Below are positions 572 through 40,856 of a DNA stretch of 40,856 nt, piece after piece. The DNA is taken from positions 1 to 40,856 of the IMG/VR virus record IMGVR_UViG_2561511241_000004; one strand, written 5' to 3'. Origin of the DNA: a virus. Lineage: Duplodnaviria; Heunggongvirae; Uroviricota; Caudoviricetes. A program made the position numbers and the translations under genes. The notes below the pieces were generated by a model. It saw nothing but the letters and a program-made list of their open reading frames with translations. It did not search any database and was not told the origin of the DNA. How positions within the stretch are numbered: position 1 is the stretch's first letter; the number at the start of each line of letters is the position of its first letter.

Positions 572-1690
572 TCAAACAACCAATTTAACCCATTCCTGAC
601 CACGAGTATCGTTATAACGATCGGTGGTTGCTTGGACTTTATGTCCCAGTAATGTTTTTGTATCGATACCCTGTGCGCGGTACAGTCGTTCTGACAGGGA
701 GCGTTGTTCATGAAATGTTGGTGGTGTTTTTCCTGCTGGTGGAGTTATTCCTGCCAGATCCCGCGCTTTAGCAAAGTAGTCGCTCAGGTTATCTTTACTC
801 ATTGGTTTTGGTTGTTTCTGGTGCCGACTATGAATCAGGTATGGACTCAATATTCTGTCCTTGCATCCATCAATCACTTCTTTTAGCGATATTCCAATGG
901 CATCACAGCGTAGCGTAAGCGGTAACGCCAGACGCATTCCGGTTTTTCCCTGGGTGATATGCAAGTGTTCGTTCCACACATCTGAAAAACGCATGTGGCA
1001 AATGTCATCACGGCGCTGACCAGTAACAATCGCAAGAAGCATTGCGTTACGGATAAAGTGTTTTTCTGGTGTTGAATTGTAAATTTTTTGCCAGTCCTCC
1101 AGGGTGAGTCTGGCTCTGGTTACTTTAGGGATCGGTTTACGGGTAGCCTCCGGAGGATTCCATCCAGGAGGAACTTCCCCTGCATGCTGTGCTTCTTTAT
1201 AAATATCAACCCATAATCCACGATTTACTCTCGCTGTGCTGACCATGTCTTTATCCAGCCACTCATCCAGTATTAATGCAAAGTCTCTTACTTCCAGTTC
1301 TTTCAATGGGTGGTTTCCCAGACGGGAAACCAGGTATGCAGCCATTCGGGCTTTTTCTTTGTGAGTTGTAGCTGCAATATCTCCATTTTTCAGTCGCGCG
1401 TCCTGTATTTTCAGATATCGATCAACCCATGACTTTAATCTGATACCCCGACGTTTTGTTGCTGACGGACTTTCATCAATTTTGCGCATGAAATATTCAG
1501 CTTCTGCTGCAGCTATTCGCTGATTGGCTGTGGAAGCGATTTTTTCTGCTTTGCCTTTGTCTGTTCCGAGACCGTGAAATTTTCCAGTCACAGGGTTTTT
1601 ATACTGGTAGTAAACCCTGCCAGTTCTGCGATCAAACTTTTCGTAAAGACCGGTTACGTCAGTGCTGTTTTTTCGTGGCCTCGGTGACAT
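572..1690 (-). CDS. int: tyrosine recombinase / phage integrase (lambda Int family)
   Basis: 372 aa; C-terminal catalytic region (HELRSL..., LLGH..., Y) closely resembles lambda Int; 3' neighbour of xis. Confidence 0.9.
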   Translation of the reverse strand: MSPRPRKNSTDVTGLYEKFDRRTGRVYYQYKNPVTGKFHGLGTDKGKAEKIASTANQRIAAAEAEYFMRKIDESPSATKRRGIRLKSWVDRYLKIQDARLKNGDIAATTHKEKARMAAYLVSRLGNHPLKELEVRDFALILDEWLDKDMVSTARVNRGLWVDIYKEAQHAGEVPPGWNPPEATRKPIPKVTRARLTLEDWQKIYNSTPEKHFIRNAMLLAIVTGQRRDDICHMRFSDVWNEHLHITQGKTGMRLALPLTLRCDAIGISLKEVIDGCKDRILSPYLIHSRHQKQPKPMSKDNLSDYFAKARDLAGITPPAGKTPPTFHEQRSLSERLYRAQGIDTKTLLGHKVQATTDRYNDTRGQEWVKLVV

Positions 1691-1989: not shown

Positions 1990-3675
1990 TTAAAAATCAG
2001 CCTGACTCGGGATCAGTTTTTGCCAGATAGCTGAAACGTATTTTGCCTGGTAACGAGCGTCATCAAGTGCATTATGGCGCTCACCTTCGAATGGAATAGC
2101 CGTTCTGGCATCGAAGTCTATGGCTTTCCCCAGCTCAACGATTGTGCGTACATCGCGATCGTTGTAGTAACGCCACGGGCAGGGGATCCCCTGCCGTTCG
2201 TATGAACGGCGCAAAATCGTGTTGTCGAAGTTGGCTCCATTTCCCCAAACCTGAACAAAAAATTCACCGGAGTTTTCGTCGATAAATTCCCGCAATTGTA
2301 ACAGTGCATCATCTAACGGGATTTCATCGGTCATAATGGCAGATTGCGCTTCGCGTGATTGCTTAAGCCACCATTTAATGGTGTCCCGATCAATGACTCC
2401 GCCAGCAGTTTCCAGATCGATAGTCTTACTAAATTCCGGTCCCATATCTCCGGTTTGCGGATCGAAAAATATTGCACCTATTGAGATGATCGGGGCATCA
2501 GGATTTTTTCCCATGGTTTCAAGGTCGATCATTAGATGGTCACACGTCCTGCTGGTGGATGTGATTTCTTGATGACCGTTCACCTTAATTGGGTGATCTG
2601 CCGTCTCGCCAGTTTCATTATCGCTATCGTGATGCTGATTGCCGCCAGTGTTCTCCTTGTGTGGATGTTCAGCGCCTTCCATTTCCTCCGGATCATCTTC
2701 CTGAACTTCAACCTGATACTCTTCATCGAATGTTTCCTGGTATGTAGCGTCGCCCATCACCGCGCCACAATCAGGGCAGTTGCCGCCGCCGGTCTGACCG
2801 CAGGCGGTGCAGACTTTTTCCACTTCCTGTTGCACTACTGGTTCAGGTAGTTTCGTTTCTGGCTCGTTTTGTTGCGTATTTTGGCTGTTTTGTTCCGCTT
2901 TCTGGTCGTTCTGTTCCGTTTCTTGCTGGTTCTGGTTCACAGAATCGCGGGTTTCAATCCCCTTCACCCATTTCGGATCATTCGGATCGCTAATCCCTGC
3001 AACAAATTCACCACGTGATACTGCAAGCAGTTCATCGGCGTCAGGCTGGCTGATATTGGCTGCCTGCATAATTTTGTTTACTTCGTCAGCGGTAACTTTT
3101 ACCGGCCCTGGTTGTGCGGTCGTGTCAGATGCACCAGTATTTTGTTGTGAACCTGAGTATGTACCGTTTTTGCGGGCGAAATATTCTTCTTTCGTGATTT
3201 CAGTAGCCCCTGCAGCCAGTGCCTTATCCAGACCAGAAAGTTTGTTTGCGCGACCGTATTTTTCGCTATCCTTGTCGGTGAAGAGGAAGTAGAACGGCCC
3301 TTCACGCTCTACAGATGGTTCGACTTCCACTTTGCATTCGGTTTTTTCGTTGTCCGGAATTGCCGTTTCCACTGCATCAGTTTCTGGTACTGGCGACGAG
3401 AGAGTATCAGTTGCGCTCTGATTTCTTCCTTCATCTTCAAACACGCCCTTTGTAGTCAGGTATTCAGTAATGTATTTGTTCAGTGCCACAGGGTCTTTGT
3501 GAATGTCGATCGGACGTTCACGGACAAGGCCAAAAATAGTCTGGCGGTCGTAGCGAAGGGCATCAGGCTGTTTGCGCATTGATGCCGAGATACGCTTCCA
3601 GTCTTCGCGGTCGTTGTCGATAACTTCTTTTTTTGCCCAGCGATGGATGCTGCCGTCAATGTTTCCGGCATCCAC
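1990..3675 (-). CDS. exonuclease, C-terminal portion with DnaQ-like DEDDh 3'-5' exonuclease domain; out of frame with the upstream portion
   Basis: C-terminal region carries Exo-like motifs (LMIDLETMG, WGNGANFD, HNALDDA); frame opens only about 30 nt upstream of its GTG, and the preceding ORF runs into junk sequence here. Confidence 0.6.
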   Translation of the reverse strand: MDAGNIDGSIHRWAKKEVIDNDREDWKRISASMRKQPDALRYDRQTIFGLVRERPIDIHKDPVALNKYITEYLTTKGVFEDEGRNQSATDTLSSPVPETDAVETAIPDNEKTECKVEVEPSVEREGPFYFLFTDKDSEKYGRANKLSGLDKALAAGATEITKEEYFARKNGTYSGSQQNTGASDTTAQPGPVKVTADEVNKIMQAANISQPDADELLAVSRGEFVAGISDPNDPKWVKGIETRDSVNQNQQETEQNDQKAEQNSQNTQQNEPETKLPEPVVQQEVEKVCTACGQTGGGNCPDCGAVMGDATYQETFDEEYQVEVQEDDPEEMEGAEHPHKENTGGNQHHDSDNETGETADHPIKVNGHQEITSTSRTCDHLMIDLETMGKNPDAPIISIGAIFFDPQTGDMGPEFSKTIDLETAGGVIDRDTIKWWLKQSREAQSAIMTDEIPLDDALLQLREFIDENSGEFFVQVWGNGANFDNTILRRSYERQGIPCPWRYYNDRDVRTIVELGKAIDFDARTAIPFEGERHNALDDARYQAKYVSAIWQKLIPSQADF

Positions 3676-4460
3676 ATCACAGGCCAGAGAGCGTAGGCCA
3701 GTTCGTCATCCAGTGTTTTCCATGTCTGCTTGTATTCGCGATGAGTGGCAGCAATGACCGGGCTGATTTTTCCTGTTGAATTTTCAGTGTTCTGTTGATT
3801 GGCTCTGGCGCGGGCGAGATCAACAACAGACGTGTATTTTCCGGTTTCCTTGCGTTCACCTTCGCGACGTTTTTTCCAGATGCGCATCTCTGCCTGAATT
3901 TCGGGCCATTTAGCACCAGGAATACATTTATGCTTAACCCACCCAATGGCGTGCAACTTAAGCTCCGGATACATGGCGTTAACTTCTGGCATTTTCATCA
4001 ACGCTTCAACGATATGTCCGTCGAATGTTGCCATGTCTTCCTGCAACAATTCCTGTGCGCTAATAACCATATCAACGGTTATGTTTTCACATGTGTCGAA
4101 CTTAACCATGACAGCGTTCTGTACTTCAGGGGCCAGCTTGTCAAAAGTGACGTTCATCGGATCGGATTCAGTCTCAACCGGGACAAAAGAAGCAGACTCC
4201 TCATCCCAGCGGTTTTCCTGCATATATTCAGCATCCCATGAATCGAGGGCAGGGCAGGGTATGCCAGGTTTATCCTCGCAGACAATAAATTTATAAGCGC
4301 AGTCCTGAGCAGCCGGATAATGTTCCAGGAATTGCCAGTGAAATTTTGCTCGAGCACGGCGTTCGTCGCCAGCTTCAATGGCTGTGGCTACAGCCACAGC
4401 GCCTTCTTCCCTTGTTGCCAGTTCGTCAGGAATAGCGGCGCAAATAAAGACTTTACTCAT
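3480..4460 (-). CDS. exonuclease N-terminal portion (YdfE-like), separated from the C-terminal portion by a frame change near 3670-3706
   Basis: Protein-like translation up to about 3680, then low-complexity junk to the stop at 3480; ATG at 4460 preferred. Confidence 0.5.
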   Translation of the reverse strand: MSKVFICAAIPDELATREEGAVAVATAIEAGDERRARAKFHWQFLEHYPAAQDCAYKFIVCEDKPGIPCPALDSWDAEYMQENRWDEESASFVPVETESDPMNVTFDKLAPEVQNAVMVKFDTCENITVDMVISAQELLQEDMATFDGHIVEALMKMPEVNAMYPELKLHAIGWVKHKCIPGAKWPEIQAEMRIWKKRREGERKETGKYTSVVDLARARANQQNTENSTGKISPVIAATHREYKQTWKTLDDELAYALWPVMWMPETLTAASIAGQKKKLSTTTAKTGSVSRHQCANSLMPFATTARLFLALSVNVRSTFTKTLWH

Positions 4461-4552
4461 TTGTTTTAACCTCATGACAGATTTAAGGATGAACAAATCC
4501 CTGCCATTGCTGGCATATAAGAATGAAACCGGATATTTATTACGGAACTGTT

Positions 4553-4744
4553 TTAAAGACCTGCCGGGATTTCGATATTATCCTGGTGAATAACTTTATC
4601 GACCGGGTAACAGTTACCGGGAATTTTCTGTTCGGTTGCTGCAGTCATACACTCCTGCATTGTCCTGTGAACACTGACTGCAATATCAACTGGCTCTCCG
4701 GAAACAAGAAAAACTGTCAGAACAAGCACAAATGCTGAATTCAT
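4553..4744 (-). CDS. ydfD: YdfD-like small membrane (lysis) protein, 63 aa
   Basis: 63 aa with N-terminal hydrophobic segment; start overlaps the dicB stop (ATGA); position matches Qin ydfD downstream of dicB. Confidence 0.6.
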   Translation of the reverse strand: MNSAFVLVLTVFLVSGEPVDIAVSVHRTMQECMTAATEQKIPGNCYPVDKVIHQDNIEIPAGL

Positions 4745-4929
4745 TGTGCACATCCTTTTGGCATCAGACGTAAACGAGCCAGCATTGAAACAATGCATAT
4801 TTTATTTAATAGCTCCCGTTCTTGTTTTCTCTTGTTAATGGCATCTTCAGTAAATACAGGGTTACTGATAGTGACACCAATTTCAAAACAACCTTCAGAC
4901 GTATTAACGTTTGGTAATAACGTTTTCAT
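4741..4929 (-). CDS. dicB: cell division inhibitor DicB (62 aa)
   Basis: Translation MKTLLPNVNTSEGCFEIGVTISNPVFTEDAINKRKQERELLNKICIVSMLARLRLMPKGCAQ matches my recollection of DicB; GAGGA RBS. Confidence 0.8.
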   Translation of the reverse strand: MKTLLPNVNTSEGCFEIGVTISNPVFTEDAINKRKQERELLNKICIVSMLARLRLMPKGCAQ

Positions 4930-6644: not shown

Positions 6645-6968
6645 AGACGCATACCGCTTAGTTACCGCTCTGATAACTCTTACCTGTCCGGCAATGGCGC
6701 TGATGTCAATATAAAGCGCCATTGCTGCTTCTTTGCCGATCCCGTGATGCCTTCCATTCTGATGTTTGACTTCGCCCACTGAGAAATCCTCTGTTTCCCC
6801 TTAACGCCGGGGTAGCGGAACAAAAACCTGCTGCATAGTTATTAAAGTTGGACCCTGCCGTCATGTTCTTACGCCTCAGGCTGGCTACTTAACCCCTGAC
6901 CACTGCCTGGTAACTCGAAGTATTGCCCTGCATTCTGTGGGGCGGGGTGGGTTGGTATGAAAAGAAGG

Positions 6969-7007
6969 ATACCCATAGGTATTTAAAAAGTAAATACCCA
7001 TGGGTAA
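6969..7007. promoter_or_regulatory. OL-like operator pair (ATACC-N4-GGTAT and ATACC-N4-GGTAA) with probable leftward early promoter
   Basis: Two 14-bp palindromes centred about 25 bp apart, sharing half-sites with the three OR sites. Confidence 0.5.
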
Positions 7008-7048
7008 CTTTTTGCGGTGTCTTAACTGGTGACTAGTTGTTTGGTGAG

Positions 7049-7468
7049 CTATGATGCGTTTTGTGCTTTCTTTTTACGGATTTCTTCGTAGATCATATTG
7101 TAATACTGTTTTTTCTCTTCAAGAGTTTTTAATAAGTTATCCGCTTCACTTTCTGGCAGTTCGTCTAAGAGATCTAAAAAAATACGTTGTCGTGGCGTTA
7201 GAACCCTTGTTTCATAACTGGAGGCTGTGTTCGTTGATGATGAAACGATACCATCCATCCATCCCCGGGGTAACCCAAAGGACTCTTCGATAATCTCCAC
7301 CATATCATCAGCGATCCGTTTTTTTCCCTTTTTCCCCTCTGGGTACAACATTCTTGATACATAAGAAGGCTCGCGCCCGATCTTTCTGGCCACGTTAACC
7401 GCTTTACCATCGCATTTCTCATCACGAATTTTGATGAGTTGCTGTCGTCTAAATTCATATTTGTCCAT
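7049..7468 (-). CDS. prophage repressor (HTH DNA-binding protein, cI-like role)
   Basis: Divergent from the cro-like gene across an operator-rich spacer; start at 7468 (MDKYEF...) has no SD and sits 7 nt after a TATTAT -10, consistent with a leaderless transcript; the ORF track extends to 7522. Confidence 0.65.
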   Translation of the reverse strand: MDKYEFRRQQLIKIRDEKCDGKAVNVARKIGREPSYVSRMLYPEGKKGKKRIADDMVEIIEESFGLPRGWMDGIVSSSTNTASSYETRVLTPRQRIFLDLLDELPESEADNLLKTLEEKKQYYNMIYEEIRKKKAQNAS

Positions 7469-7568: not shown

Positions 7569-7850
7569 ATGGAAGAATTAAGAATATTTCTCAATTCTCT
7601 TTCGTCAGATGAACAGCGTATGTTTGCATGCGAGTGTGGTACCAGCATCGGTTATCTAAGAAAGGCATTGAGTAAAGGTCAAGTGTTAGGGGCATCGTTA
7701 TGTGTCCTTATTGAGCGAGCCAGTAATGGTGAAGTTACACGTCAGCAACTAAGGCCTTTTGATTGGATGAATATTTGGCCCGAGCTGGAAGATACCAAAA
7801 CGTTAACACAACCACTTTCTAGGAGCTTGATTCATGAAAATCAAGCATGA
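7569..7850 (+). CDS. Cro-like / YdaS-family HTH regulator
   Basis: 93 aa, first rightward gene after the operators; AAGGAG RBS; HTH-like segment GTSIGYLRKALSKGQ. Confidence 0.6.
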   Translation: MEELRIFLNSLSSDEQRMFACECGTSIGYLRKALSKGQVLGASLCVLIERASNGEVTRQQLRPFDWMNIWPELEDTKTLTQPLSRSLIHENQA

Positions 7851-8259
7851 ACACATCCGCATGGCGATGAATGCCTGGGCGCATCCGGACGGTGAAAAAG
7901 TTCCGGCAGCTGAAATAACCAGGGCTTATTTTGAACTGGGTATGACGTTCCCAGAACTGTATGACGACAGCCATCCGGAAGCCCTGGCTCGCAATACCCA
8001 GAAAATTTTCCGCTGGATAGAGAAAGACACCCCTGATGCAGTTGAAAAAATTCAGGCGTTGTTACCAGCGATCGAAAAGGCAATGCCACCTTTGCTGGTG
8101 GCCAGAATGCGCAGCCACAGTTCAGCTTATTTTCGGGAGCTGGTGGAGACGCGGGAGCGACTGGTGAGAGACGCTGATGATTTTGTCGCAGTGGCAATCG
8201 CCGGTTTCAATCAGATGAACCGTGGTGGCCCGGCAGGAAATGCTGTGGCAGTACATTGA
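7834..8259 (+). CDS. YdaT-like protein (Rac prophage family)
   Basis: 141 aa beginning MKIKHEH and ending ...VH, as recollected for Rac YdaT; overlaps the end of the cro-like gene. Confidence 0.55.
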   Translation: MKIKHEHIRMAMNAWAHPDGEKVPAAEITRAYFELGMTFPELYDDSHPEALARNTQKIFRWIEKDTPDAVEKIQALLPAIEKAMPPLLVARMRSHSSAYFRELVETRERLVRDADDFVAVAIAGFNQMNRGGPAGNAVAVH

Positions 8260-9441: not shown

Positions 9442-9867
9442 GTGGCAAAAGTTTTTACACAAGAAGAGCGGGAAAAAATTAAAGGGCAGGTTGTTGAACT
9501 TGTACGCCAGAGTGGGCGCGAGACGTTACGTCAACTGGAAGCCAAGACAGGTGCGACAAGATATCTGATGAGCGTTCTCGCAAGAGAGCTGGTTGCCAGC
9601 GGCGATGTATACAACTCTGGTTACGGGTTATTCCCGTCTGAACAGGCTCGTAAGGACTGGCAAAATGCCCGCAAAAAACTCTCAAGGGCAAAGCTGAAGA
9701 AAAAAACATCTGTGGTTGATCCGGACCTTATCTGGTCGTTACCAGACGGAGAAATACGCCGCTATGACAGGCGTCTGAACATAATCTGTCGCGAGTGCCG
9801 GAATAGTGAAGTTATGCAGCGTGTACTGGCTTTCTATCAGGGGAATTTTCAGGAGGCGGCGCAGTGA
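9442..9867 (+). CDS. hypothetical protein (141 aa, GTG start)
   Basis: AGGAGG RBS 5 nt upstream of the GTG; no helicase-loader or AAA motifs seen. Confidence 0.5.
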   Translation: MAKVFTQEEREKIKGQVVELVRQSGRETLRQLEAKTGATRYLMSVLARELVASGDVYNSGYGLFPSEQARKDWQNARKKLSRAKLKKKTSVVDPDLIWSLPDGEIRRYDRRLNIICRECRNSEVMQRVLAFYQGNFQEAAQ

Positions 9868-10064
9868 GCAGGATTGACTACCAGGAATTGGCTGCTGCTA
9901 ACGCTTCCCTGGCTGATGTACGGGCGGTGGCGTTTAACGACCTTTGCGCGGCGTTTGCCAGGCACGCAAAAGTTGCAGGACTGGATGATGCCGATACCGT
10001 AACGCTTAAGGAAGTGACAGAAGCATTGTTGCATTGTGCGGAACAGATTCGCGCGCCTGAATAA
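9864..10064 (+). CDS. hypothetical protein (66 aa, GTG start, GTGA overlap with the upstream gene)
   Basis: AGGAGG RBS 7 nt upstream; translationally coupled. Confidence 0.4.
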   Translation: MSRIDYQELAAANASLADVRAVAFNDLCAAFARHAKVAGLDDADTVTLKEVTEALLHCAEQIRAPE

Positions 10065-10159
10065 TTAAATTTAGTGTTGTAAATAAAATTTAATCCTTAA
10101 CCGGAGGGATTTCTGCACCCTCAGAACATCAGGAGGCCGCCCGAAAGGGCGGTAATGAA

Positions 10160-10342
10160 ATGCGAAAGTTCAGAATAATTATTGAAACGGGAATAGCTGG
10201 TGGAGATTTTGAGGATGTATTCGAAGTGGATGATGGTGCGACACCAGATGAAATACAGGACGAAGCAAAAGAAATTTTCTTTAACTACTGCAATTACTCA
10301 TATCACGAAATAAAAGATGAGGAGGAAGAACAAAATGGCTGA
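10160..10342 (+). CDS. small highly acidic protein (60 aa, about 18 D/E)
   Basis: Preceded by a GNRA-loop hairpin; strongly negative net charge. Confidence 0.5.
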   Translation: MRKFRIIIETGIAGGDFEDVFEVDDGATPDEIQDEAKEIFFNYCNYSYHEIKDEEEEQNG

Positions 10343-10511
10343 TTTTGGTTCAACTAAATACAACGTCAGTTTTGAAGAATGGCATGAACTGTTAATGGAC
10401 TATGCAGAGTTACGCGGTGGAAGTGCCGCTGATGCTGAAGCATGGCGTTATGACTACGAAGCAGGAAAAACTCCGGTCGAAGCATATTGTGATGAGTGGG
10501 GCGATGAATGA
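10335..10511 (+). CDS. small highly acidic protein (58 aa, about 15 D/E)
   Basis: GAGGAGGAAG RBS; overlaps the upstream stop and the downstream start (ATGA). Confidence 0.5.
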   Translation: MADFGSTKYNVSFEEWHELLMDYAELRGGSAADAEAWRYDYEAGKTPVEAYCDEWGDE

Positions 10512-11023
10512 GCGAGATTAATTATCAGGAAGGACATGAAACGGCAGGGCAGGCAAAACCAGTTGCATGGCGATATCGCTACGTGAAAAAAGGCATTACG
10601 GACTCACAGGGGGAGCCGTGGGTTGGTGACTGGAAATATGTACCGACAAAAGAGGATTGCAACGACAGGCCGAGCTATGAAATTCAGGCGTTATTCACTG
10701 CCCCGCCTGTGCCACTGACATCAGAAGGACTGGTTAAAGCCGTGCGCTTTTATGAACAGGTAAAGCGTGAGAATCCACCAGTCGAAACAGGAGCATGGAA
10801 AGATGCTGTTGATTGGGTACTCAAAGAGGCCTGCAGTGCTGTCATTCTGGGTAAAGCCGACAACCCACCAGCTTCCGGCAATCAGGTTAGCGAATTAACA
10901 ATGTGGGTTAAACGACTGGTCAGCCAACTGAAAAAAGCCAAGCCGGACTGCAAATTACCGGAGAAGGCGATGGACTACCTGAAGCGAAACGGACTGATAA
11001 GCGTGGAGGATGTTTTACGGTGA
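10508..11023 (+). CDS. hypothetical protein (171 aa)
   Basis: Translationally coupled to the acidic pair; no family recognised. Confidence 0.55.
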   Translation: MSEINYQEGHETAGQAKPVAWRYRYVKKGITDSQGEPWVGDWKYVPTKEDCNDRPSYEIQALFTAPPVPLTSEGLVKAVRFYEQVKRENPPVETGAWKDAVDWVLKEACSAVILGKADNPPASGNQVSELTMWVKRLVSQLKKAKPDCKLPEKAMDYLKRNGLISVEDVLR

Positions 11024-11162
11024 GATAGTAAATGCATGTAATGAGACGGGGGGGGTGAGGGGAGGCTTCATCTGGATAGATCTTGCACCGTTCATATGTT
11101 ATAAAAACAATTCCTACTGTTAAATCGTTGTTTGTTTTAGTTGCTATATTTAAGGAGTGAAT

Positions 11163-14003: not shown

Positions 14004-14363
14004 ATGCGTATAGAGTTTGTTTTGCCTTATCCGCCGACGGTGAATACTTACTGGCGACGTCGTGGCAACACATATTTTGTATCAAAAGTCGGTGAGCGTT
14101 ATCGCCGTGATGTGGCACTAATTGTTCGCCAGCAGCGGTTGAAATTAAACCTGTCCGGAAGGCTGGCAATAAAAATTATTGCAGAGCCACCGGATAAGCG
14201 CCGCCGCGACCTGGACAATATCCTGAAGGCACCACTGGATGCGCTGACGCATGCCGGACTTCTCATAGACGACGAGCAGTTTGATGAAATCAATATTGTG
14301 CGCGGACTGCCTGTTCCTGGTGGTCGGCTGGGGATAAAAATCACAGAACTGGAGTGCGCATGA
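14004..14363 (+). CDS. rusA: Holliday junction resolvase RusA
   Basis: 119 aa; RRRDLDNxxK motif and overall similarity to E. coli RusA. Confidence 0.85.
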   Translation: MRIEFVLPYPPTVNTYWRRRGNTYFVSKVGERYRRDVALIVRQQRLKLNLSGRLAIKIIAEPPDKRRRDLDNILKAPLDALTHAGLLIDDEQFDEINIVRGLPVPGGRLGIKITELECA

Positions 14364-15049
14364 ATAACCAGTATTTACAGTTTGTGCGTGAGCAGCTCAT
14401 TATCGCTACCGCTGATTTGAGTGGGGCAACAAAAGGTCAGCTTGAAGCCTGGCAGGAGAATGCCATGTTTGATACAGGGCGTTACAGGCGTAAAAAAATC
14501 CGGTACCGCGATGAAGTGACTGGAAGAATGATAACGCGGGATAGTCCACCGATACCGGGAAAACAATCACTGGCGAAAGGCTCATCAATTGCTCTGGTAA
14601 GTCAGGTTGAGTTTTCGACATCATCATGGCGACGGGCAGTTCTGTCTCTTGAAGAACATCATAAAGCCTGGTTGTTGTGGTGTTACAGCGGGAGTATTTG
14701 TTGGGAATATCAGATCGCGATAACACAGTGGGCGTGGAATGAATTTAATACTCAATCCGGTACCAGAAAAATTGCAGGGAAAACGCAGGAACGCCTGAAA
14801 AAATTAATCTGGCTGGCGGCGCAGGCATTAAAAGCAGAACTTTTTGGTGGGGAAGGTTATGAATACCAGGAGCTGGCATTACTGGCGGGAGTGACAACTA
14901 AAAACTGGTCCAAAACATTTACTCGTCACTGGGTTGCAATGAAACACATTTTTCACCGACTTGATAGTGAGGCTTTATTGTTTGTAATGAGAACACGTTC
15001 AAAACAAAAGGCGGCATTTTCAAAGCAAAGTGTTGCAAAAGTAGATTGA
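14360..15049 (+). CDS. putative late-gene antiterminator (Q-like), assigned by position only
   Basis: ATGA overlap with the rusA stop; last gene before the terminator, tRNAs and lysis cassette; no motif-level confirmation. Confidence 0.4.
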   Translation: MNNQYLQFVREQLIIATADLSGATKGQLEAWQENAMFDTGRYRRKKIRYRDEVTGRMITRDSPPIPGKQSLAKGSSIALVSQVEFSTSSWRRAVLSLEEHHKAWLLWCYSGSICWEYQIAITQWAWNEFNTQSGTRKIAGKTQERLKKLIWLAAQALKAELFGGEGYEYQELALLAGVTTKNWSKTFTRHWVAMKHIFHRLDSEALLFVMRTRSKQKAAFSKQSVAKVD

Positions 15050-15243: not shown

Positions 15244-15319
15244 GGCCCTTTAGCTCAGTGGTGAGAGCGAGCGACTCATAATCGCCAGGTCGCTGGTTCA
15301 AATCCAGCAAGGGCCACCA
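15244..15319 (+). tRNA. tRNA with anticodon CAU (Ile2/Met type, ileX/ileZ-like)
   Basis: Clean cloverleaf: 7-bp acceptor stem, GCTC/GAGC D-stem, anticodon loop CUCAUAA, TTCAAAT T-loop, CCA end; very similar to E. coli ileX. Confidence 0.8.
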
Positions 15320-15320
15320 G

Positions 15321-15397
15321 CCGCCACTAGCTCATCAGGAAAGAACGTCAACCCTTTAAGTTGAGTGTGCGAGGTTCGAGTCCCCGGTGGCGGTCCA
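15321..15397 (+). tRNA. tRNA-like gene with unusual anticodon loop CCUUUAA (C at position 33); identity uncertain
   Basis: Perfect 7-bp acceptor stem, TCAAC/GTTGA anticodon stem, TTCGAGT T-loop, CCA end; mismatches in D- and T-stems. Confidence 0.5.
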
Positions 15398-15399
15398 GT

Positions 15400-15476
<77 letters not shown>

Positions 15477-15479
15477 TAT

Positions 15480-15554
<75 letters not shown>

Positions 15555-32134: not shown

Positions 32135-35100
32135 ATGGGTAAAGGCAGCAGTAAGGGGCATACCCCGCGCGAAGCGAAGGACAACCTGAAATCCACGCAG
32201 CTGCTGAGTGTGATTGATGCCATCAGCGAAGGGCCGATTGAAGGTCCGGTGGATGGATTAAAAAGCGTGCTGCTGAACAGTACGCCAGTGCTGGACAGTG
32301 AGGGGAATACCAACATCTCCGGCGTCACGGTGGTGTTCCGGGCCGGTGAGCAGGAGCAGACACCGCCGGAGGGATTTGAATCCTCCGGCTCCGAGACGGT
32401 GCTGGGTACGGAAGTGAAATACGACACGCCGATCACCCGGACCATCACGTCGGCAAACATTGACCGACTGCGTTTTACCTTCGGCGTGCAGGCACTGGTG
32501 GAAACCACCTCAAAGGGGGACAGGAATCCGTCGGAAGTCCGCCTGCTGGTTCAGATACAGCGTAATGGTGGCTGGGTGACGGAAAAAGACATCACCATTA
32601 AGGGCAAAACCACCTCGCAGTATCTGGCCTCGGTGGTGGTGGGTAACCTGCCGCCGCGCCCGTTCAATATACGGATGCGCAGGATGACGCCGGACAGCAC
32701 CACAGACCAGCTGCAGAACAAAACGCTCTGGTCGTCATACACCGAAATCATCGATGTGAAACAGTGCTACCCGAACACGGCACTGGTCGGCGTGCAGGTG
32801 GACTCGGAGCAGTTCGGCAGCCAGCAGGTGAGCCGTAATTATCATCTGCGCGGGCGTATTCTGCAGGTGCCGTCGAATTATAACCCGCAGACGCGGCAAT
32901 ACAGCGGTATCTGGGACGGAACGTTTAAACCGGCATACAGCAACAACATGGCCTGGTGTCTGTGGGATATGCTGACCCATCCGCGCTACGGCATGGGGAA
33001 ACGTCTTGGTGCGGCGGATGTGGATAAATGGGCGCTGTATGTCATCGGCCAGTACTGCGACCAGTCAGTGCCGGACGGCTTTGGCGGCACGGAGCCGCGC
33101 ATCACCTGTAATGCGTACCTGACCACACAGCGCAAGGCGTGGGATGTGCTCAGTGATTTCTGCTCGGCGATGCGCTGTATGCCGGTATGGAACGGGCAGA
33201 CGCTGACGTTCGTGCAGGACCGGCCATCAGATAAGGTGTGGACCTATAACCGCAGTAATGTGGTGATGCCGGATGATGGTGCGCCGTTCCGCTACAGCTT
33301 CAGCGCCCTGAAGGACCGCCATAATGCCGTTGAGGTGAACTGGATTGACCCGAATAACGGCCAGGAGACGGCGACAGAGCTTGTGGAGGATACGCAGGCC
33401 ATTGCCCGTTACGGTCGTAACGTCACGAAAATGGATGCCTTTGGCTGTACCAGCCGGGGGCAGGCACACCGAGCCGGGCTGTGGCTGATTAAAACGGAGC
33501 TGCTGGAAACGCAGACCGTGGACTTCAGCGTGGGTGCTGAAGGGCTTCGCCATGTGCCGGGCGATGTCATTGAAATCTGCGATGATGACTATGCCGGTAT
33601 CAGCACCGGTGGTCGCGTGCTGGCGGTGAACAGCCAGACCCGGACGCTGACGCTCGACCGTGAAATCACGCTGCCATCCTCCGGCACCACGCTGATAAGC
33701 CTGGTTGACGGAAATGGCAATCCGGTCAGCGTGGAGGTTCAGTCCGTCACCGACGGCGTGAAGGTGAAAGTGAGCCGGGTTCCTGACGGCGTTGCTGAAT
33801 ACAGCGTGTGGGGGCTGAAGTTGCCGACGTTGCGCCAGCGCCTGTTCCGCTGTGTGAGTATCCGTGAGAACGATGACGGCACGTATGCCATCACTGCCGT
33901 GCAGCATGTACCGGAAAAAGAGGCCATCGTGGATAACGGGGCGCACTTTGACGGCGACCAGAGCGGCACGGTGAATGGTGTCACGCCGCCAGCGGTGCAG
34001 CACCTGACCGCCGAAGTCACCGCAGACAGCGGGGAATATCAGGTGCTGGCGCGCTGGGACACGCCGAAGGTGGTGAAGGGCGTGAGCTTCCTGCTCCGTC
34101 TGACCGTAACAGCGGATGACGGCAGTGAGCGGCTGGTCAGCACGGCCCGGACGACGGAAACCACATACCGCTTCACGCAACTGGCGCTGGGGAACTACAG
34201 GCTGACTGTCCGGGCTGTAAATGCGTGGGGACAGCAGGGCGAGCCGGCATCGGTATCGTTCCGGATTGCCGCACCGGCAGCGCCGTCTCGGATTGAGCTG
34301 ACACCGGGCTATTTTCAGATAACCGCCACGCCGCATCTTGCGGTTTATGATCCGACGGTACAATTTGAGTTCTGGTTCTCGGAAACGCGGATTACCGATA
34401 TCAGGCAGGTTGAAACCACAGCCCGCTACCTTGGCACGGGGCTGTACTGGATAGCCGCCAGTATCAATATCAAACCGGGCCATGATTATTACTTTTATAT
34501 CCGCAGTGTGAACACCGTTGGCAAATCGGCATTCGTGGAGGCCGTCGGTCGGGCGAGCGATGATGCGGAAGGTTACCTGGATTTTTTCAAAGGCAAGATA
34601 ACCGAATCCCATCTTGGTAAAGAGCTGCTGGAAAAAGTCGACCTGACGGAGGATAACGCCAGCAAACTGGAGCAGTTTTCGAAAGAGTGGAAGGATGCCA
34701 ACGATAAATGGAATGCCATGTGGGCTGTCAAAATTGAGCAGACCAAAGACGGCAAACATTATGTCGCGGGTATTGGCCTCAGTATGGAGGACACGGAGGA
34801 AGGCAAACTGAGCCAGTTTCTGGTTGCCGCTAACCGTATCGCGTTTATTGACCCGGCAAACGGGAATGAAACGCCGATGTTTGTGGCGCAGGGCAATCAG
34901 ATATTCATGAACGACGTGTTCCTGAAACGCCTGACGGCCCCCACCATTACCAGTGGTGGAAATCCACCGGCATTTTCCCTGACACCGGATGGGCGGCTGA
35001 CGGCGAAAAATGCCGATATCAGCGGTAACGTGAATGCGAACTCCGGGACGCTCAACAACGTCACGATTAACGAGAACTGTCGGGTTCTGGGAAAACTGTC

Positions 35101-35530
35101 CGCGAACCAGATTGAAGGCGATCTCGTTAAAACAGTGGGCAAAGCTTTCCCCCGGGACTCCCGTGCACCGGAACGGTGGCCATCAGGGACCATTACCGTC
35201 AGGGTTTATGACGATCAGCCGTTTGACCGGCAGATTGTTATTCCGGCGGTGGCATTCAGCGGCGCTAAACATGAGAGAGAGCATACTGATATTTACTCCT
35301 CATGCCGTCTGATAGTGCGGAAAAACGGTGCTGAAATTTATAACCGTACCGCGCTGGATAATACGCTGATTTACAGTGGCGTTATTGATATGCCTGCCGG
35401 TCACGGTCACATGACGCTGGAGTTTTCGGTGTCAGCATGGCTGGTAAATGACTGGTATCCCACAGCAAGTATCAGCGATTTGCTGGTTGTGGTGATGAAG
35501 AAAGCCACCGCAGGCATCAGTATCAGCTGA
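32135..35530 (+). CDS. J: tail tip / host specificity protein J
   Basis: 1131 aa, lambda J-like throughout, including fibronectin-like repeats and a C-terminal receptor-binding region. Confidence 0.95.
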
Positions 35531-35597: not shown

Positions 35598-36197
35598 ATG
35601 CGTAAAGTTTGTGCAGCCATTTTGTCCGCAGCCATCTGTCTGTCCGTATCCGGTGCGCCTGCATGGGCGTCTGAACATCAGTCCACACTGAGCGCAGGGT
35701 ATCTTCATGCCCGTACGAACGCTCCCGGCAGCGATAATCTGAACGGGATTAACGTGAAATACCGTTATGAGTTTACGGACACGCTGGGGCTGATTACGTC
35801 CTTCAGTTATGCCAATGCTGAGGATGAGCAAAAAACGCACTACAGCGATACCCGCTGGCATGAAGATTCCGAGCGTAATCGCTGGTTCAGCGTGATGGCG
35901 GGGCCGTCTGTACGCGTGAATGAATGGTTCAGCGCGTATGCGATGGCGGGTGTGGCTTACAGCCGTGTGTCGACTTTCTCCGGGGATTATCTCCGCGTAA
36001 CTGACAACAAGGGGAAAAAGCACGATGTGCTGACCGGAAGTGATGACGGTCGCCACAGCAACACGTCTCTGGCGTGGGGAGCTGGCGTGCAGTTTAACCC
36101 GACCGAATCCGTGGCCATTGATGTCGCTTATGAAGGCTCCGGCAGTGGTGACTGGCGCACTGACGGGTTCATCGTGGGTGTTGGTTATAAATTCTGA
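35598..36197 (+). CDS. lom: outer membrane protein Lom (Ail/Lom family)
   Basis: Near-identical to lambda Lom; signal peptide; ends ...GFIVGVGYKF. Confidence 0.9.
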   Translation: MRKVCAAILSAAICLSVSGAPAWASEHQSTLSAGYLHARTNAPGSDNLNGINVKYRYEFTDTLGLITSFSYANAEDEQKTHYSDTRWHEDSERNRWFSVMAGPSVRVNEWFSAYAMAGVAYSRVSTFSGDYLRVTDNKGKKHDVLTGSDDGRHSNTSLAWGAGVQFNPTESVAIDVAYEGSGSGDWRTDGFIVGVGYKF

Positions 36198-36223
36198 TTA
36201 GCCAGGTAACACAGTGTTATGAC

Positions 36224-36250
36224 AGCCCGCCGGTTCAGGCGGGCTTTTTT
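36224..36250 (+). terminator. rho-independent terminator after lom
   Basis: gcccgcc-ggttca-ggcgggc followed by tttttt. Confidence 0.6.
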
Positions 36251-36261
36251 GTGGGGTGAAT

Positions 36262-39009
36262 ATGGCAGTAAAAATTTCAGGTGTACTGAAAGACGGCACA
36301 GGAAAACCGGTACAGAACTGCACAATCCAGCTGAAAGCAAAACGTAACAGTACCACGGTGGTGGTGAACACGCTGGCATCTGAAAATCCGGATGAAGCCG
36401 GGCGTTACAGCATGGACGTTGAGTACGGTCAGTACAGCGTTATTTTGTTGGTGGAGGGATTCCCGCCGTCACATGCCGGGACCATCACCGTGTATGAAGA
36501 TTCTCAACCCGGTACGCTGAATGATTTTCTCGGTGCCATGACGGAGGATGATGCCCGTCCGGAGGCACTGCGCCGCTTTGAACTGATGGTGGAAGAGGTG
36601 GCGCGTAACGCGTCCGCAGTGGCGCAGAACACAGCAGCCGCGAAGAAGTCAGCCAGCGATGCCAGCACATCAGCCCGTGAGGCGGCAACCCATGCGACTG
36701 ATGCTGCAGGCTCAGCACGTGCAGCCAGCACATCAGCCGGGCAGGCCGCGACGTCGGCTCAGTCAGCGTCTTCCAGCGCAGGAACGGCATCAACAAAGGC
36801 TACTGAAGCATCAAAAAGTGCTGCCGCTGCAGAGTCCTCAAAAAGCGCGGCAGCTACCAGTGCCAGTGCCGCGAAAACGTCAGAAACGAATGCGGCAGCG
36901 TCACAAAAATCTGCAGCCACTTCTGCATCCACCGCGACCACGAAAGCGTCAGAAGCTGCCACCTCAGCCCGGGATGCGGCGGCCTCAAAAGAGGCAGCGA
37001 AATCATCAGAAACGAGCGCAGCCTCGAGCGCCAGCAGCGCAGCTTCCTCGGCAACGGCGGCAGGAAATTCCGCGAAGGCGGCAAAGACGTCCGAGACGAA
37101 CGCCAGGTCTTCTGAAACGGCAGCGGGACAGAGTGCCTCAGCTGCGGCAGGCTCAAAAACAGCGGCTGCATCATCTGCCAGTGCCGCGTCAACAAGTGCC
37201 GGGCAGGCCTCAGCCAGTGCCACCGCTGCCGGAAAGTCGGCAGAAAGTGCCGCATCGTCTGCTTCAACAGCCACAACGAAGGCTGGCGAAGCCACTGAAC
37301 AGGCCAGCGCAGCAGCGAGGTCAGCTTCCGCAGCGAAGACATCCGAAACGAACGCGAAAGCGTCGGAAACCCGTGCAGAATCCTCAAAAACGGCTGCCGC
37401 ATCGTCAGCCAGTTCGGCGGCGTCATCGGCATCATCGGCGTCTGCTTCAAAAGATGAGGCGACCAGACAGGCGTCAGCAGCGAAGGGCAGCGCCACGACA
37501 GCATCCACGAAGGCGACAGAGGCAGCTGGCAGTGCGACGGCGGCAGCACAGAGCAAAAGTACGGCGGAATCCGCGGCAACGCGCGCCGAGACAGCGGCAA
37601 AACGGGCAGAGGATATTGCATCCGCCGTGGCGCTTGAGGATGCGAGCACGACGAAAAAGGGGATAGTACAGCTCAGCAGTGCGACCAACAGCACGTCTGA
37701 AACGCTGGCGGCAACGCCAAAGGCAGTTAAAACTGTTAAAGATAGTTCAGTTCAAAAAACTGGCGACACAATGGGAGGGCAGTTAAAAATCAGCACGATA
37801 AATGCTCTTCGAATATTCAACCAAGCCTTTGGCCTTATTTTTAGGCGTTCCGAAGATCATCTTCATCTTATTCCGACTAATGAAGGGGAGGGGGAAAATG
37901 GAGACATCGGTTCATTAAGACCATTCTCTATAAACTTAAGATCAGGGTTGGTGTCCATCGGTAATGGACTAAAAGTTGGTGGTAGTGTTACTGGTAATTT
38001 GACCGGAAACGCAGATACTGCGACCAAGATCAAGACAGCACGTAAGATTGGGGGCGTGGCATTTGATGGATCGGCAGATATCAACTTGCCTGGAGTCAAC
38101 GCTACCGGTAATCAAAACACTACAGGTAATGCTGCGACCGCCACGAAACTTCAGGCAGCCAGAACGATTAACGGTGTGTCATTTGATGGTAGTGCAAATA
38201 TCACATTGACCCCTTCAAATATTGGGGCATTGGCATTAACTGGAGGGACTCTTTCAGGTGGTTTAACTGCTGCTGGTGAGGTTATTTCAAGGTCAGCAAA
38301 TGGTCTGCGTATTGCCTATGGCAACTATGGATTCTTTATCCGAAATGATGGATTAAACACATATTTTATGTTGACAGATTCGGGTAACAGGCTTGGTACG
38401 TACAATAGCTTAAGGCCGTTTATAATTAGTAACCATACTGGCAATGTTACAATTGCAACTAAATTAAACGCGAGTGGTGGTATCACTGGATCTTTATCGG
38501 GTAATGCAAGCACAGCAACCAAATTGCAAACTGCAAGGACAATTAACGGCGTAAAATTTGACGGCTCGGCAAATATTGAAGCGTTTCCGCCAGGTGTTCC
38601 GCTGCCGTGGCCATCAGATACACCACCTGCAGGTTATGCAATCATGCAGGGGCAGACGTTTGATAAGGCAGCATATCCGAAACTGGCTATTGCCTATCCT
38701 TCAGGTGTTATTCCAGATATGCGCGGCTGGACAATCAAGGGCAAACCCGCCAGTGGTCGGGCCGTATTGTCTCAGGAACAGGACGGCATTAAATCGCACA
38801 CCCACAGCGCCAGCGTATCCAGTACGGATTTGGGGACGAAAACCACATCGTCGTTTGATTACGGCACTAAATCCACGAATAACACTGGTGCGCATACCCA
38901 TAGTGTTAGCGGTACGGCTGCTTCAGCCGGTGCACATACCCATTCGATGACATTTGTTTCAGGTGGTTCCAGTGGTGCTCCGGGAAGTGGATCACCTGAT
39001 TATTACTAA
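36262..39009 (+). CDS. stf: side tail fibre protein (Stf-like) with long Ala/Ser/Thr-rich repeat region; frame breaks about 70 codons before the expected C-terminus
   Basis: Conserved N-terminus [16 protein letters not shown]; low-complexity repeat 36600-37650; GAHTHS repeats near the 3' end; ends ...GSGSPDYY. Confidence 0.8.
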
Positions 39010-39226
39010 ATACAGTGTTAACACTTCTTCTGCAGGCGCTCATACGCACTCTGTATCGGGTACTGCTGCAAGCGCAGGTGCACACGCACATACTGTCGGT
39101 ATTGGTGCTCATACGCACTCCGTTGCGATTGGTTCACATGGACATACCATCACCGTTAACGCTGCTGGTAACGCGGAAAACACCGTCAAAAACATCGCAT
39201 TTAACTATATTGTGAGGCTTGCGTAA
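38954..39226 (+). CDS. Stf C-terminal segment in an alternate frame (canonical ...[13 protein letters not shown] end)
   Basis: Repeats the [17 protein letters not shown] motif and ends exactly where tfa starts. Confidence 0.5.
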
Positions 39227-39810
39227 TGGCATTCAGAATGAGTGAACAACCACGGACCATAAAAATTTATAATCTGCTGGCCGGAACTAATGAATTTATT
39301 GGTGAAGGTGACGCATATATTCCGCCTCATACAGGTCTGCCAGCAAACAGTACCGATATTGCACCACCAGATATTCCTGCTGGCTTTGTGGCTGTTTTCA
39401 ACAGTGATGAGGCATCGTGGCATCTCGTTGAAGACCATCGGGGTAAAACGGTTTATGACGTAGCGTCAGGGGACGAGTTATTTATTTCTGAACTCGGTCC
39501 GTTACCGGAAAATGTTACCTGGTTATCGCCGGAAGGGGAGTTTCAGAAGTGGAACGGCACAGCCTGGGTGAAGGATACGGAAGCAGAAAAACTGTTCCGG
39601 ATCCGGGAGGCGGAAGAAACAAAAAACAACCTGATGCAGGTAGCCAGTGAGCATATTGCGCCGCTTCAGGATGCTGCAGATCTGGAAATTGCAACGGAGG
39701 AAGAAACCTCATTGCTGGAAGCCTGGAAAAAGTATCGGGTGTTGCTGAACCGTGTTGATACATCAACTGCACCTGATATTGAGTGGCCTACGAACCCTGT
39801 CAGGGAGTAA
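39226..39810 (+). CDS. tfa: tail fibre assembly protein (Tfa)
   Basis: 194 aa, [18 protein letters not shown]... Tfa family; immediately follows stf. Confidence 0.85.
39656..39810 (+). repeat. direct repeat copy 1 (tfa 3' region, about 85% identical to 40697..40856)
   Basis: Aligned by eye: gcgcc(g/a)ct(t/g)caggatgctg(c/t)agatctggaaat(t/c)gcaacggaggaagaaa... Confidence 0.6.
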
Positions 39811-39864
39811 TCATTGGGATTATGCCGCAGCACGTCTTAAGCAAGAACGTGCTGCGGTTGGATG

Positions 39865-40521
39865 CTATTTTTTCCCTGAAGCGGAAAACATTACTACAGT
39901 ACCTTGAACCTTGGTTTTAACATTCTCGAAATGCTCTGAGAGTATATGTGTTAAGCCTTCTTCGGAATCTTTTGTGTTTGAAAAGATGCCTTTCTGATTG
40001 TAAATGCGCATCAGTTTTTGACCGAAGCTATTGTGCACAACTCCATCGCCAAGAATTGTGGCTCCGTATAGAGTTCCATCGTCAGTTAAGGCCTGCGCCG
40101 CATTGCGTATTACACAGCTTTTTGTAGATATATTTCCAGGCAGGCAGTGAAGAAGGTAAAACATGGAAATGGAATCAAATTGACCATGTAACGCCGCGGG
40201 ATAAGGTTCAAAAACATCATGGCTAATTTTATGTTTAATTTTTGATTCCCCAGCCCTTGTCGATGCCGCGTTCAGGCTAGCTTCGTTCAAATCCATTAAA
40301 GATATCAGACTACTCTCAGGTACGTGAGTAAGGTAAAACCCAGTTCCAACACCAATATCCAGATGGTTGTTACCTACATGTTCCAGAAAGTGTGGAAGAA
40401 GGTGTTCCTTTGTAGGACATCCCCATGCAAGCCGATTTGATACTCCCAAAACCCACCAGTCATAAAGCTTTAGGGTAAGTGGTGTGTAAATTTTAGCCCC
40501 ATCATCTGTGTTTTTTTTCAT
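39865..40521 (-). CDS. class I SAM-dependent methyltransferase (no DPPY/NPPY motif, so probably not a DNA amino-methyltransferase)
   Basis: SAM-binding motif LDIGVGTGFY; GGTGA RBS before the ATG at 40521; AT-rich, opposite strand to the tail fibre genes. Confidence 0.65.
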   Translation of the reverse strand: MKKNTDDGAKIYTPLTLKLYDWWVLGVSNRLAWGCPTKEHLLPHFLEHVGNNHLDIGVGTGFYLTHVPESSLISLMDLNEASLNAASTRAGESKIKHKISHDVFEPYPAALHGQFDSISMFYLLHCLPGNISTKSCVIRNAAQALTDDGTLYGATILGDGVVHNSFGQKLMRIYNQKGIFSNTKDSEEGLTHILSEHFENVKTKVQGTVVMFSASGKK

Positions 40522-40589
40522 TGATTTCACCATGTTATAGTTTTATTTGTGAATTAAATCAATTATGGCGATGAATTACAAGGGGTTAA

Positions 40590-40856
40590 ATGCTGCCGCA
40601 GCATAGCGATATTGAAATAGCCTGGTATGCTTCGATACAGCAGGAGCCGAATGGCTGGAAGACCGTCACCACACAGTTCTACATCCAGGAATTCAGTGAG
40701 TATATTGCGCCACTGCAGGATGCTGTAGATCTGGAAATCGCAACGGAGGAAGAAAGATCGTTGCTGGAGGCATGGAATAAATATCGGGTATTGTTGAATC
40801 GTGTTGATACATCAACTGCACCTGATATTGAGTGGCCGACTTCACCTGCAGAGTAA
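40590..40856 (+). CDS. tail fibre assembly-like protein (conserved Tfa C-terminal domain, divergent short N-terminus)
   Basis: AAGGGG RBS; C-terminal 50 aa almost identical to Tfa; the window ends at its stop codon. Confidence 0.6.
40697..40856 (+). repeat. direct repeat copy 2 (tfa 3' region)
   Basis: See copy 1. Confidence 0.6.

Follow-up and report, generated by a model that had tools for sequence, protein, structure and literature searches.

A ybcY-family methyltransferase between two copies of the tfa 3' end in a potB prophage of Escherichia coli: a passenger block probably moved by tfa-homology recombination

The DNA analysed here, called the window below, consists of the 40,856 nucleotides of the IMG/VR virus record IMGVR_UViG_2561511241_000004 and is a complete lambdoid prophage of Escherichia coli, inserted beside potB. 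In its right arm, the side tail fibre gene stf and the tail fibre assembly gene tfa are followed, on the opposite strand, by a gene for a class I S-adenosylmethionine (SAM)-dependent methyltransferase (MTase) of the ybcY family and then by a second, incomplete copy of tfa (tfa'), so that the MTase gene lies between two direct repeats of the tfa 3' end (Table 1). This right arm is best explained as carrying a passenger MTase and a tfa' relic in a block that was probably moved by recombination in tfa homology. The three-part module itself is already annotated, as tfaD-ybcY-tfaX, in the cryptic prophage DLP12 of E. coli K-12.

The original prediction had described about 155 bp of the tfa 3' end that recur with roughly 85% identity, and this was confirmed. 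The two copies form a direct, ungapped repeat of 158 nt with 87% identity, which is the longest repeat within 36000-40856, and an alignment with two small gaps takes it to both stop codons (177 versus 174 nt; 180 nt at 85% identity by blastn). The longest identical run within the repeat comprises 38 nt (39751-39788, equal to 40800-40837). As both copies are in frame and both match the Pfam family Caudo_TAP (PF02413), the repeat is far beyond chance. Codon differences between the copies are synonymous in 10 cases and non-synonymous in 7, a mostly synonymous divergence which shows only that both descend from working tfa genes. The C-terminal 60-80 or so residues of Tfa match many different Tfa families of the PHROG database. 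In Mu-type Tfa proteins the variable N-terminal domain binds the fibre and the conserved C-terminal helical domain has been proposed to serve trimerisation (PMC9608196). With its C-terminal part conserved across families in this way, the tfa 3' end naturally supplies homology along the right margin of the tail-fibre module.

Evidence that this homology has been used comes from other prophages at the same chromosomal site. Prophages at potB occur in two states, either bearing the MTase gene or showing the order J-lom-stf-tfa-attR-potB without the MTase gene and tfa', so that, contrary to one outcome considered in the original prediction, the arrangement is not the same in all relatives. The MTase-less state was found in 33 of the best 40 matches, and the junction MTase-tfa'-attR-potB in 820 genomes. 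Four MTase-less potB prophages (C311, VG12A2, O104:H4 2009EL-2071 and KS-NP019) were aligned with the window. In all four, the single tfa gene follows the version of the window's tfa through the repeat and then the version of tfa'; the switch falls directly after the 38-nt run, and the last 19 nt together with the attR flank are of the tfa' type. The tfaD gene of K-12 shares the tail found on the window's tfa, not that of tfa'. Two-piece matches of the H179 type at potB, considered as a candidate for a full-length second tfa, proved to be the ordinary arrangement. These alignments show the tfa 3' homology to be a real recombination joint. The pattern at potB would have one of two possible origins: either a cassette of the DLP12/ev243 type recombined in, with the right crossover in the tfa' block, or the cassette was deleted between the direct repeats.

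The edges at which other genomes depart from the window point to the same region. To the right, K-12 leaves the ybcY-tfa' block at about 40770, O157 and phage ev243 leave it at 40814, and the potB prophages have no such edge. To the left, similarity ends within the tfa 3' end in ev243 and Ecol_244 (39690/39694), at 39819 in O157, and at 39793 where an IS3 element has inserted. Phage ev243 has a different fibre, yet it has kept a 121-nt fragment of the tfa 3' end upstream. Because the version switch directly follows the 38-nt run and the right edges fall within the conserved tfa block, recombination in tfa homology explains gain or loss of the cassette.

In the DLP12-like prophage of O157 (AR-0428; positions 2337-4550 of the fetched locus), four further genes lie between tfa and the MTase gene, all on the strand of the latter, and encode a manganese catalase, two ferritin-like proteins and a general stress protein. 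In the evenly sampled match lists, the 150-nt spacer of the MTase-spacer-tfa' block was never seen without the MTase gene, and since the two were never apart in the sampled genomes, MTase, spacer and tfa' are to be regarded as one unit. Alternative cargo between the same two repeats was not found in any sampled genome. The proposal that cassettes are exchanged by recombination between tfa homology blocks therefore stands in part: crossovers in the tfa 3' block account for presence and absence of the MTase gene and for the mosaic edges, but cassettes interchangeable between the two repeats are unproven. In the phage Kati, about 1.1 kb of small unannotated open reading frames (ORFs) separate a DNA invertase gene from the MTase gene.

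The likeness to DLP12 is close, with 96.9% identity over 1465 nt between window positions 39372-40836 and positions 9660-11122 of the NC_000913 locus (blastn). The DLP12 module (MG1655 b0561-b0563) agrees with the window in its three parts, in their order and orientation and in the tfaX start codon, so that the cassette arrangement is not a new system. The two differ in that ybcY of DLP12 is frameshifted, that its tfaX has a premature stop and a 3' end that deviates from about 40770, and that appY-ompT follow the module there whereas attR-potB follow it here; in the window the MTase gene is intact and the prophage complete. Of 5426 complete E. coli genomes, 3831 contain MTase DNA, in every case with at least 95% identity, and repeat, MTase and repeat are together covered at 80% or more in 3387 genomes. 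Fifteen phage records also matched, 14 of them over the full length of the gene, among them ev243, 2G7b, PhiR26_1 and Kati, and one record labels the product 'putative uncharacterized protein YbcY'.

In the history that we propose, a single illegitimate join would have created the MTase-spacer-tfa' block, which relaxed homologous recombination would then have spread among lambdoid phages; on the left the crossover would lie in the tail-fibre genes or in the tfa 3' end, and on the right in the conserved part of the relic. The version in the window looks like a cassette of the DLP12/ev243 type that recombined into a potB phage within the 38-nt run; crossing over in the opposite sense, from one direct repeat to the other, would remove it again. 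Experiments by others make such crossovers plausible, as phage lambda uses Red-beta or RecA to take up marker cassettes set within stf/tfa homology in the prophages Rac and Qin (De Paepe et al., 2014, PMC3945230), and a sequence divergence of 12% reduces recombination only about 100-fold (PMC3945230).

The second copy had been described in the original prediction as a second, shorter tfa-like gene; it is more aptly called a relic. The complete tfa gene covers positions 1-130 of the 131 positions of the Caudo_TAP profile, and its product is called tail fiber assembly protein in near-identical genomes, whereas the second copy does not reach full length, matching only the end of the profile, and is labelled by the Prokaryotic Genome Annotation Pipeline (PGAP) in near-identical genomes as a tfa fragment, 'incomplete, missing N-terminus'. 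Only the last 57 codons of its 88-codon ORF are Tfa. Residues 3-37 are covered by phrog_3893, and the N-terminus resembles HK225_029 (BLASTP, 39% over 36 amino acids, E=7e-8); similar sequence was found with tblastn in phages Ayreon, Klebsiella Kp488x and HK140. In HK225, the small gp29 gene is located beside dinI, between the tail-fibre genes and attP. As the first 31 or so codons are gp29-like and the remainder is Tfa, the ORF is an in-frame chimera. In some genomes PGAP calls a 'DinI family fragment' between the MTase gene and tfa'; translation of the minus strand in three frames gave no open DinI-like frame, and the plus-strand frame at this position is the one related to HK225 gp29. In 5 of 10 independent copies (K-12, ETEC1716, AR_0137 and the phages Kati and 2G7b) the tfa' ORF has a premature stop or an indel. 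Judged by these comparisons, tfa' represents the 3' third of another tfa gene and appears as a decaying relic rather than a gene; it would have no function of its own.

The enzyme between the repeats had been predicted to be a class I SAM-dependent MTase, encoded on the opposite strand in AT-rich DNA and lacking the DPPY/NPPY motif of DNA amino-methyltransferases, and all of this holds. The ORF scores above the Pfam gathering cut-offs for four families (Methyltransf_12, _23, _25 and _11), contains the GxGxG SAM-binding motif and is predicted to adopt the seven-strand Rossmann fold of class I enzymes. In an alignment of 23 homologues, 63 columns are invariant, including the motif D59-x-G61-x-G63-T-G65. 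The homologues are 218 amino acids long and M5 (40521) is an invariant start across the alignment, so that translation probably begins at 40521 and yields 218 residues. With a GC content of 41.3%, the gene is poorer in GC than the window as a whole (50.7%), tfa (48%) or the pair tfa and stf (48-53%). A regular expression for motif IV ([DNS]PP[YFW]) had no match in the protein, and no DNA-methylase family occurs among its Pfam matches. In structural comparisons, the AlphaFold2 model (predicted local distance difference test score, pLDDT, 88.5) best matches juvenile-hormone acid, phosphatidylethanolamine, CysG/BelI, and polyketide synthase C- and RebM-type methyltransferases, that is, a fold like that of small-molecule MTases. 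A sequence profile search of the PDB gave only weak matches, to juvenile-hormone acid and UbiG-type enzymes, and an NCBIfam search gave no match above cut-offs.

The MTase ORF is intact in 9 of the 10 full-length copies compared. In Salmonella, Enterobacter and Erwinia, homologues with 56-68% identity occur singly, in neighbourhoods that are unrelated to one another and not of phage character, and closer homologues (79-87%) are found among insertion sequence (IS) elements and ccdAB or PerC-type genes. The neighbourhoods of the chromosomal homologues are not conserved and give no clue to the substrate. From this distribution the MTase appears to be a wandering accessory enzyme captured by phage and not an E. 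coli housekeeping gene, the identity that had been named as speaking against the cassette view. The gene may be kept by selection, and the likely substrate of its product is a small molecule or lipid, not DNA.

Signals that might serve expression of the MTase gene can be read from the sequence. A match to a sigma-70-type promoter, TTGATT (40562-40557) and TATAAC (40539-40534) with a 17-nt spacer, lies in the divergent region between the MTase gene and tfa', and a second, weak match is found at 40589-40562. In a genomic SELEX (systematic evolution of ligands by exponential enrichment) study of RpoD in K-12, a ybcY promoter with identical hexamers is listed, with a tfaX promoter diverging from it and a mark as an H-NS site (PMC3946193). 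The -10 hexamer abuts the annotated ATG of the MTase gene (40533), and with the start at M5, four codons further on, the mRNA leader may be very short or absent. Based on this sequence match, transcription of the gene in the lysogen could start at a promoter of its own. As it is co-oriented with int, leftward read-through from int across attP might also transcribe it in sense in the excised, circular phage, by analogy with the b-region genes of lambda. Between the convergent tfa and MTase genes, a stem-loop with a T-rich tail (RNAfold, -28.3 kcal/mol for 39815-39870) is a predicted terminator of the late (tfa) transcript; its loop is longer than 8 nt, which is why a consensus terminator scan missed it. 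PGAP also calls a 45-amino-acid 'hypothetical protein' (WP_001309429.1) at 39783-39920, across the tfa stop, the stem-loop and the MTase 3' end on the opposite strand, and this call is probably spurious.

Several other explanations of the locus were weighed against movement by tfa-homology recombination. It is conceivable that a single illegitimate event made tfa-MTase-tfa', that the repeats have been inert since, and that the MTase-less prophages never had the MTase gene. This would agree with the finding that MTase, spacer and tfa' always form one block with at least 95% identity and with the decay of the tfa' ORF, but it leaves aside that the MTase-less potB prophages change from the tfa to the tfa' version exactly after the 38-nt run and that the right edge varies with the integration site while always lying inside the conserved tfa block. 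Version switch and variable right edges require crossovers in tfa homology, and we therefore consider an inert fossil improbable. A derivation of the tfa pair from an invertible host-range switch, like those of Mu (G), P1 (C) or e14 (P), was rejected and is given hardly any weight: the copies are direct rather than inverted, no invertase ORF is listed in 36000-40856, which includes the stretch from tfa to the window end, and a hix-like core pattern occurs at chance level (2 found, 1.5 expected). In its favour, a DNA invertase gene lies near the same position, between the tail-fibre chaperone gene and the cargo or attP, in the related phages Kati (6767-7357 of the fetched locus) and HK225 (4360-4908). 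Points can also be raised against the explanation that we favour. In the tail genes beside the block, the MTase-less prophages compared share only 92-95% identity with the window, and none is a recent derivative; for this reason the sequences do not allow a decision between gain and loss at potB. Within the repeat, some individual positions show patchy agreement between versions, which could be ordinary polymorphism and not crossover tracts. A recombinase gene was not identified in the window, where a candidate ORF (3480-4496) belongs to no Pfam family. With regard to expression and activity of the passenger, the K-12 copy of ybcY is a pseudogene, and a ybcY mutant was without phenotype in the one assay found (PMC2408971).

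Different roles for the two genes of the block were also considered. The conserved ATG at 40590, the in-frame fusion of gp29 and Tfa, a match of the full 88 amino acids to phrog_2341, and the tfaX promoter listed in the K-12 SELEX study would suit a short but functional Tfa-like protein, which might act as an alternative chaperone or, consisting of the trimerisation domain alone, interfere with fibre assembly of other phages. With stops or indels in half of the independent copies, including those of the cultured phages Kati and 2G7b, without the fibre-binding N-terminal domain, and with a pseudogene fragment as the PGAP call, such a protein is very unlikely. For the MTase, action on DNA, as an anti-restriction or orphan methylase, was considered, as DNA methyltransferases are frequent in phages and one is encoded elsewhere in a relative of this prophage (E24377A). 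Motif, Pfam and fold evidence speak against such an activity, which was rejected as scarcely credible, and the same evidence argues for the view of the original prediction that the gene is cargo and not a DNA amino-methyltransferase. A further-reaching version of the recombination model, which we put forward tentatively and think rather unlikely, would have tfa' retained as a permanent right-hand homology arm by which the ybcY MTase hitch-hikes into any lambdoid phage during swaps of the tail-fibre module, the MTase being a selected lysogenic-conversion enzyme that acts on a small molecule or lipid of the host.

Compared with known systems, the locus resembles morons and the lambda b region, in which accessory genes of lambdoid phages lie between the tail-fibre genes and attP; the MTase gene likewise follows tfa and, being on the opposite strand, is co-oriented with int. 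The gene content of the window at this position is unrelated to ea47, ea31 and ea59 of lambda. The MTase gene behaves as morons do in being present or absent at the same position of otherwise homologous potB prophages and in its deviating base composition (41.3% GC compared with 48-53% for tfa and stf); its promoter match (TTGATT-17-TATAAC, with the hexamers of the K-12 ybcY SELEX promoter) and the stem-loop downstream may be a promoter and terminator of its own. In lambdoid prophages of enterohaemorrhagic and enteropathogenic E. coli (EHEC and EPEC), effector clusters downstream of tail-fibre genes share the pattern of cargo ahead of a tfa fragment that has lost its 5' part and lies shortly before attR or another prophage, but their cargo is nleG, espW and espM2 and they do not occupy the same cassette site. 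In the genomes compared here, these type III effector genes precede the tfa 3' fragment beside ssrA or an adjacent prophage; since these fragments start 24 nt further in and derive from other tfa alleles, they represent independent truncation events. An intact tfa-effectors-tfa' example was sought, and both loci fetched were disrupted by IS elements upstream. In the work of De Paepe et al. (2014; PMC3945230) the mechanism proposed here was shown experimentally with artificial markers in Rac and Qin, whereas the window has natural cargo with a relic as right-hand homology arm and offers the evidence of sequences. The Mu G/Gin, P1 C/Cin and e14 P/Pin systems also have a second tfa copy beside the first, but there the copies are inverted and complete and are accompanied by an invertase and crossover sites, none of which the window has.

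The remainder of the window has the layout of a lambdoid prophage (Table 1). It ends with the stop codon of tfa', and potB lies just outside it in near-identical genomes (99.6-99.9% identical over 39200-40856), in which about 230-250 bp separate this stop codon from attR at the potB 3' end; in genomes that do not match the prophage part of the query, matching starts within the potB 3' end. With attR and potB shortly beyond tfa', the tfa-MTase-tfa' module lies at the far right of the prophage, where lambda has its b region. The stf gene is broken, its 917-amino-acid ORF ending at 39009 and a 90-amino-acid ORF beginning at 38954 in a different frame. The 85 nt at the break (38944-39028) differ from the 147 nt that intact relatives (strain 203740, E24377A) have at this place, and the split recalls the stf frameshift of laboratory lambda, so that the fibre may be non-functional. 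The middle of stf (36600-37700), which encodes an Ala/Ser/Thr-rich part, is GC-rich (about 62%), shows a strong skew of A over T and contains degenerate direct repeats with spacings that are mostly multiples of 21 nt (families D2-D5). Just downstream of Q, four tRNA genes (Met-CAT, Lys-TTT, Thr-TGT and Gly-TCC) are located at 15244-15554, and the E24377A prophage has another set (Ile, Thr, Gly) at the equivalent position. The early region encodes a protein with a YdaT toxin domain (7834-8259), and at the integrase end a 561-amino-acid protein with an Rv2179c-like 3'-5' exoribonuclease domain is encoded at 1990-3675.

Table 1. Features of the window, with positions counted from its first nucleotide.
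Feature	Position	Strand	Matches and remarks
int, lambda-type integrase	572-1690	-	
Q antiterminator gene	14354-15049		
J	32135-35530		
lom	35598-36197		
stf, side tail fibre gene	36256-39226	+	Two ORFs, 36256-39009 and 38954-39226; Pfam phage_tail_N, Gp34_trimer, Collar, Phage_fiber
tfa, complete tail fibre assembly gene, 194 amino acids	39226-39810	+	Pfam Caudo_TAP, E=1.9e-44; phrog_105
Repeat copy 1	39634-39791	+	Part of tfa encoding the conserved C-terminal domain
Stem-loop GCCGCAGCACGT / ACGTGCTGCGG (39824-39857) with T-rich tail	39824-39873		Between convergent tfa and MTase genes
ybcY-family class I SAM-dependent MTase, 222 amino acids	39865-40533	-	Pfam; phrog_2132
Divergent promoter region	40534-40589	- (for MTase)	Read from sequence
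Chimeric tfa' ORF, 88 amino acids	40590-40856	+	Tfa only in last 57 residues
First 31 codons of tfa' ORF	40590-40682	+	From the 5' end of an HK225 gp29-like gene, not tfa; phrog_3893
tfa' (tfaX), 5'-truncated tfa relic	40683-40856	+	Caudo_TAP match confined to profile positions 75-131; holds repeat copy 2 (40683-40840)

As a discovery the locus is of small importance, since the module is already annotated and it is established experimentally that cargo after tail-fibre genes can move by stf/tfa recombination. Prophages bring the intact and conserved YbcY MTase to about 70% of complete E. coli genomes. If tfa' did serve as a retained homology arm, this would explain why one MTase allele (at least 95% identity) is found in 71% of complete E. 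coli genomes and at several integration sites. What the potB prophages offer is a clean natural example, in which a 38-nt identical run inside the conserved domain of a chaperone gene marks the joint between cassette-bearing and cassette-free forms at one chromosomal site.

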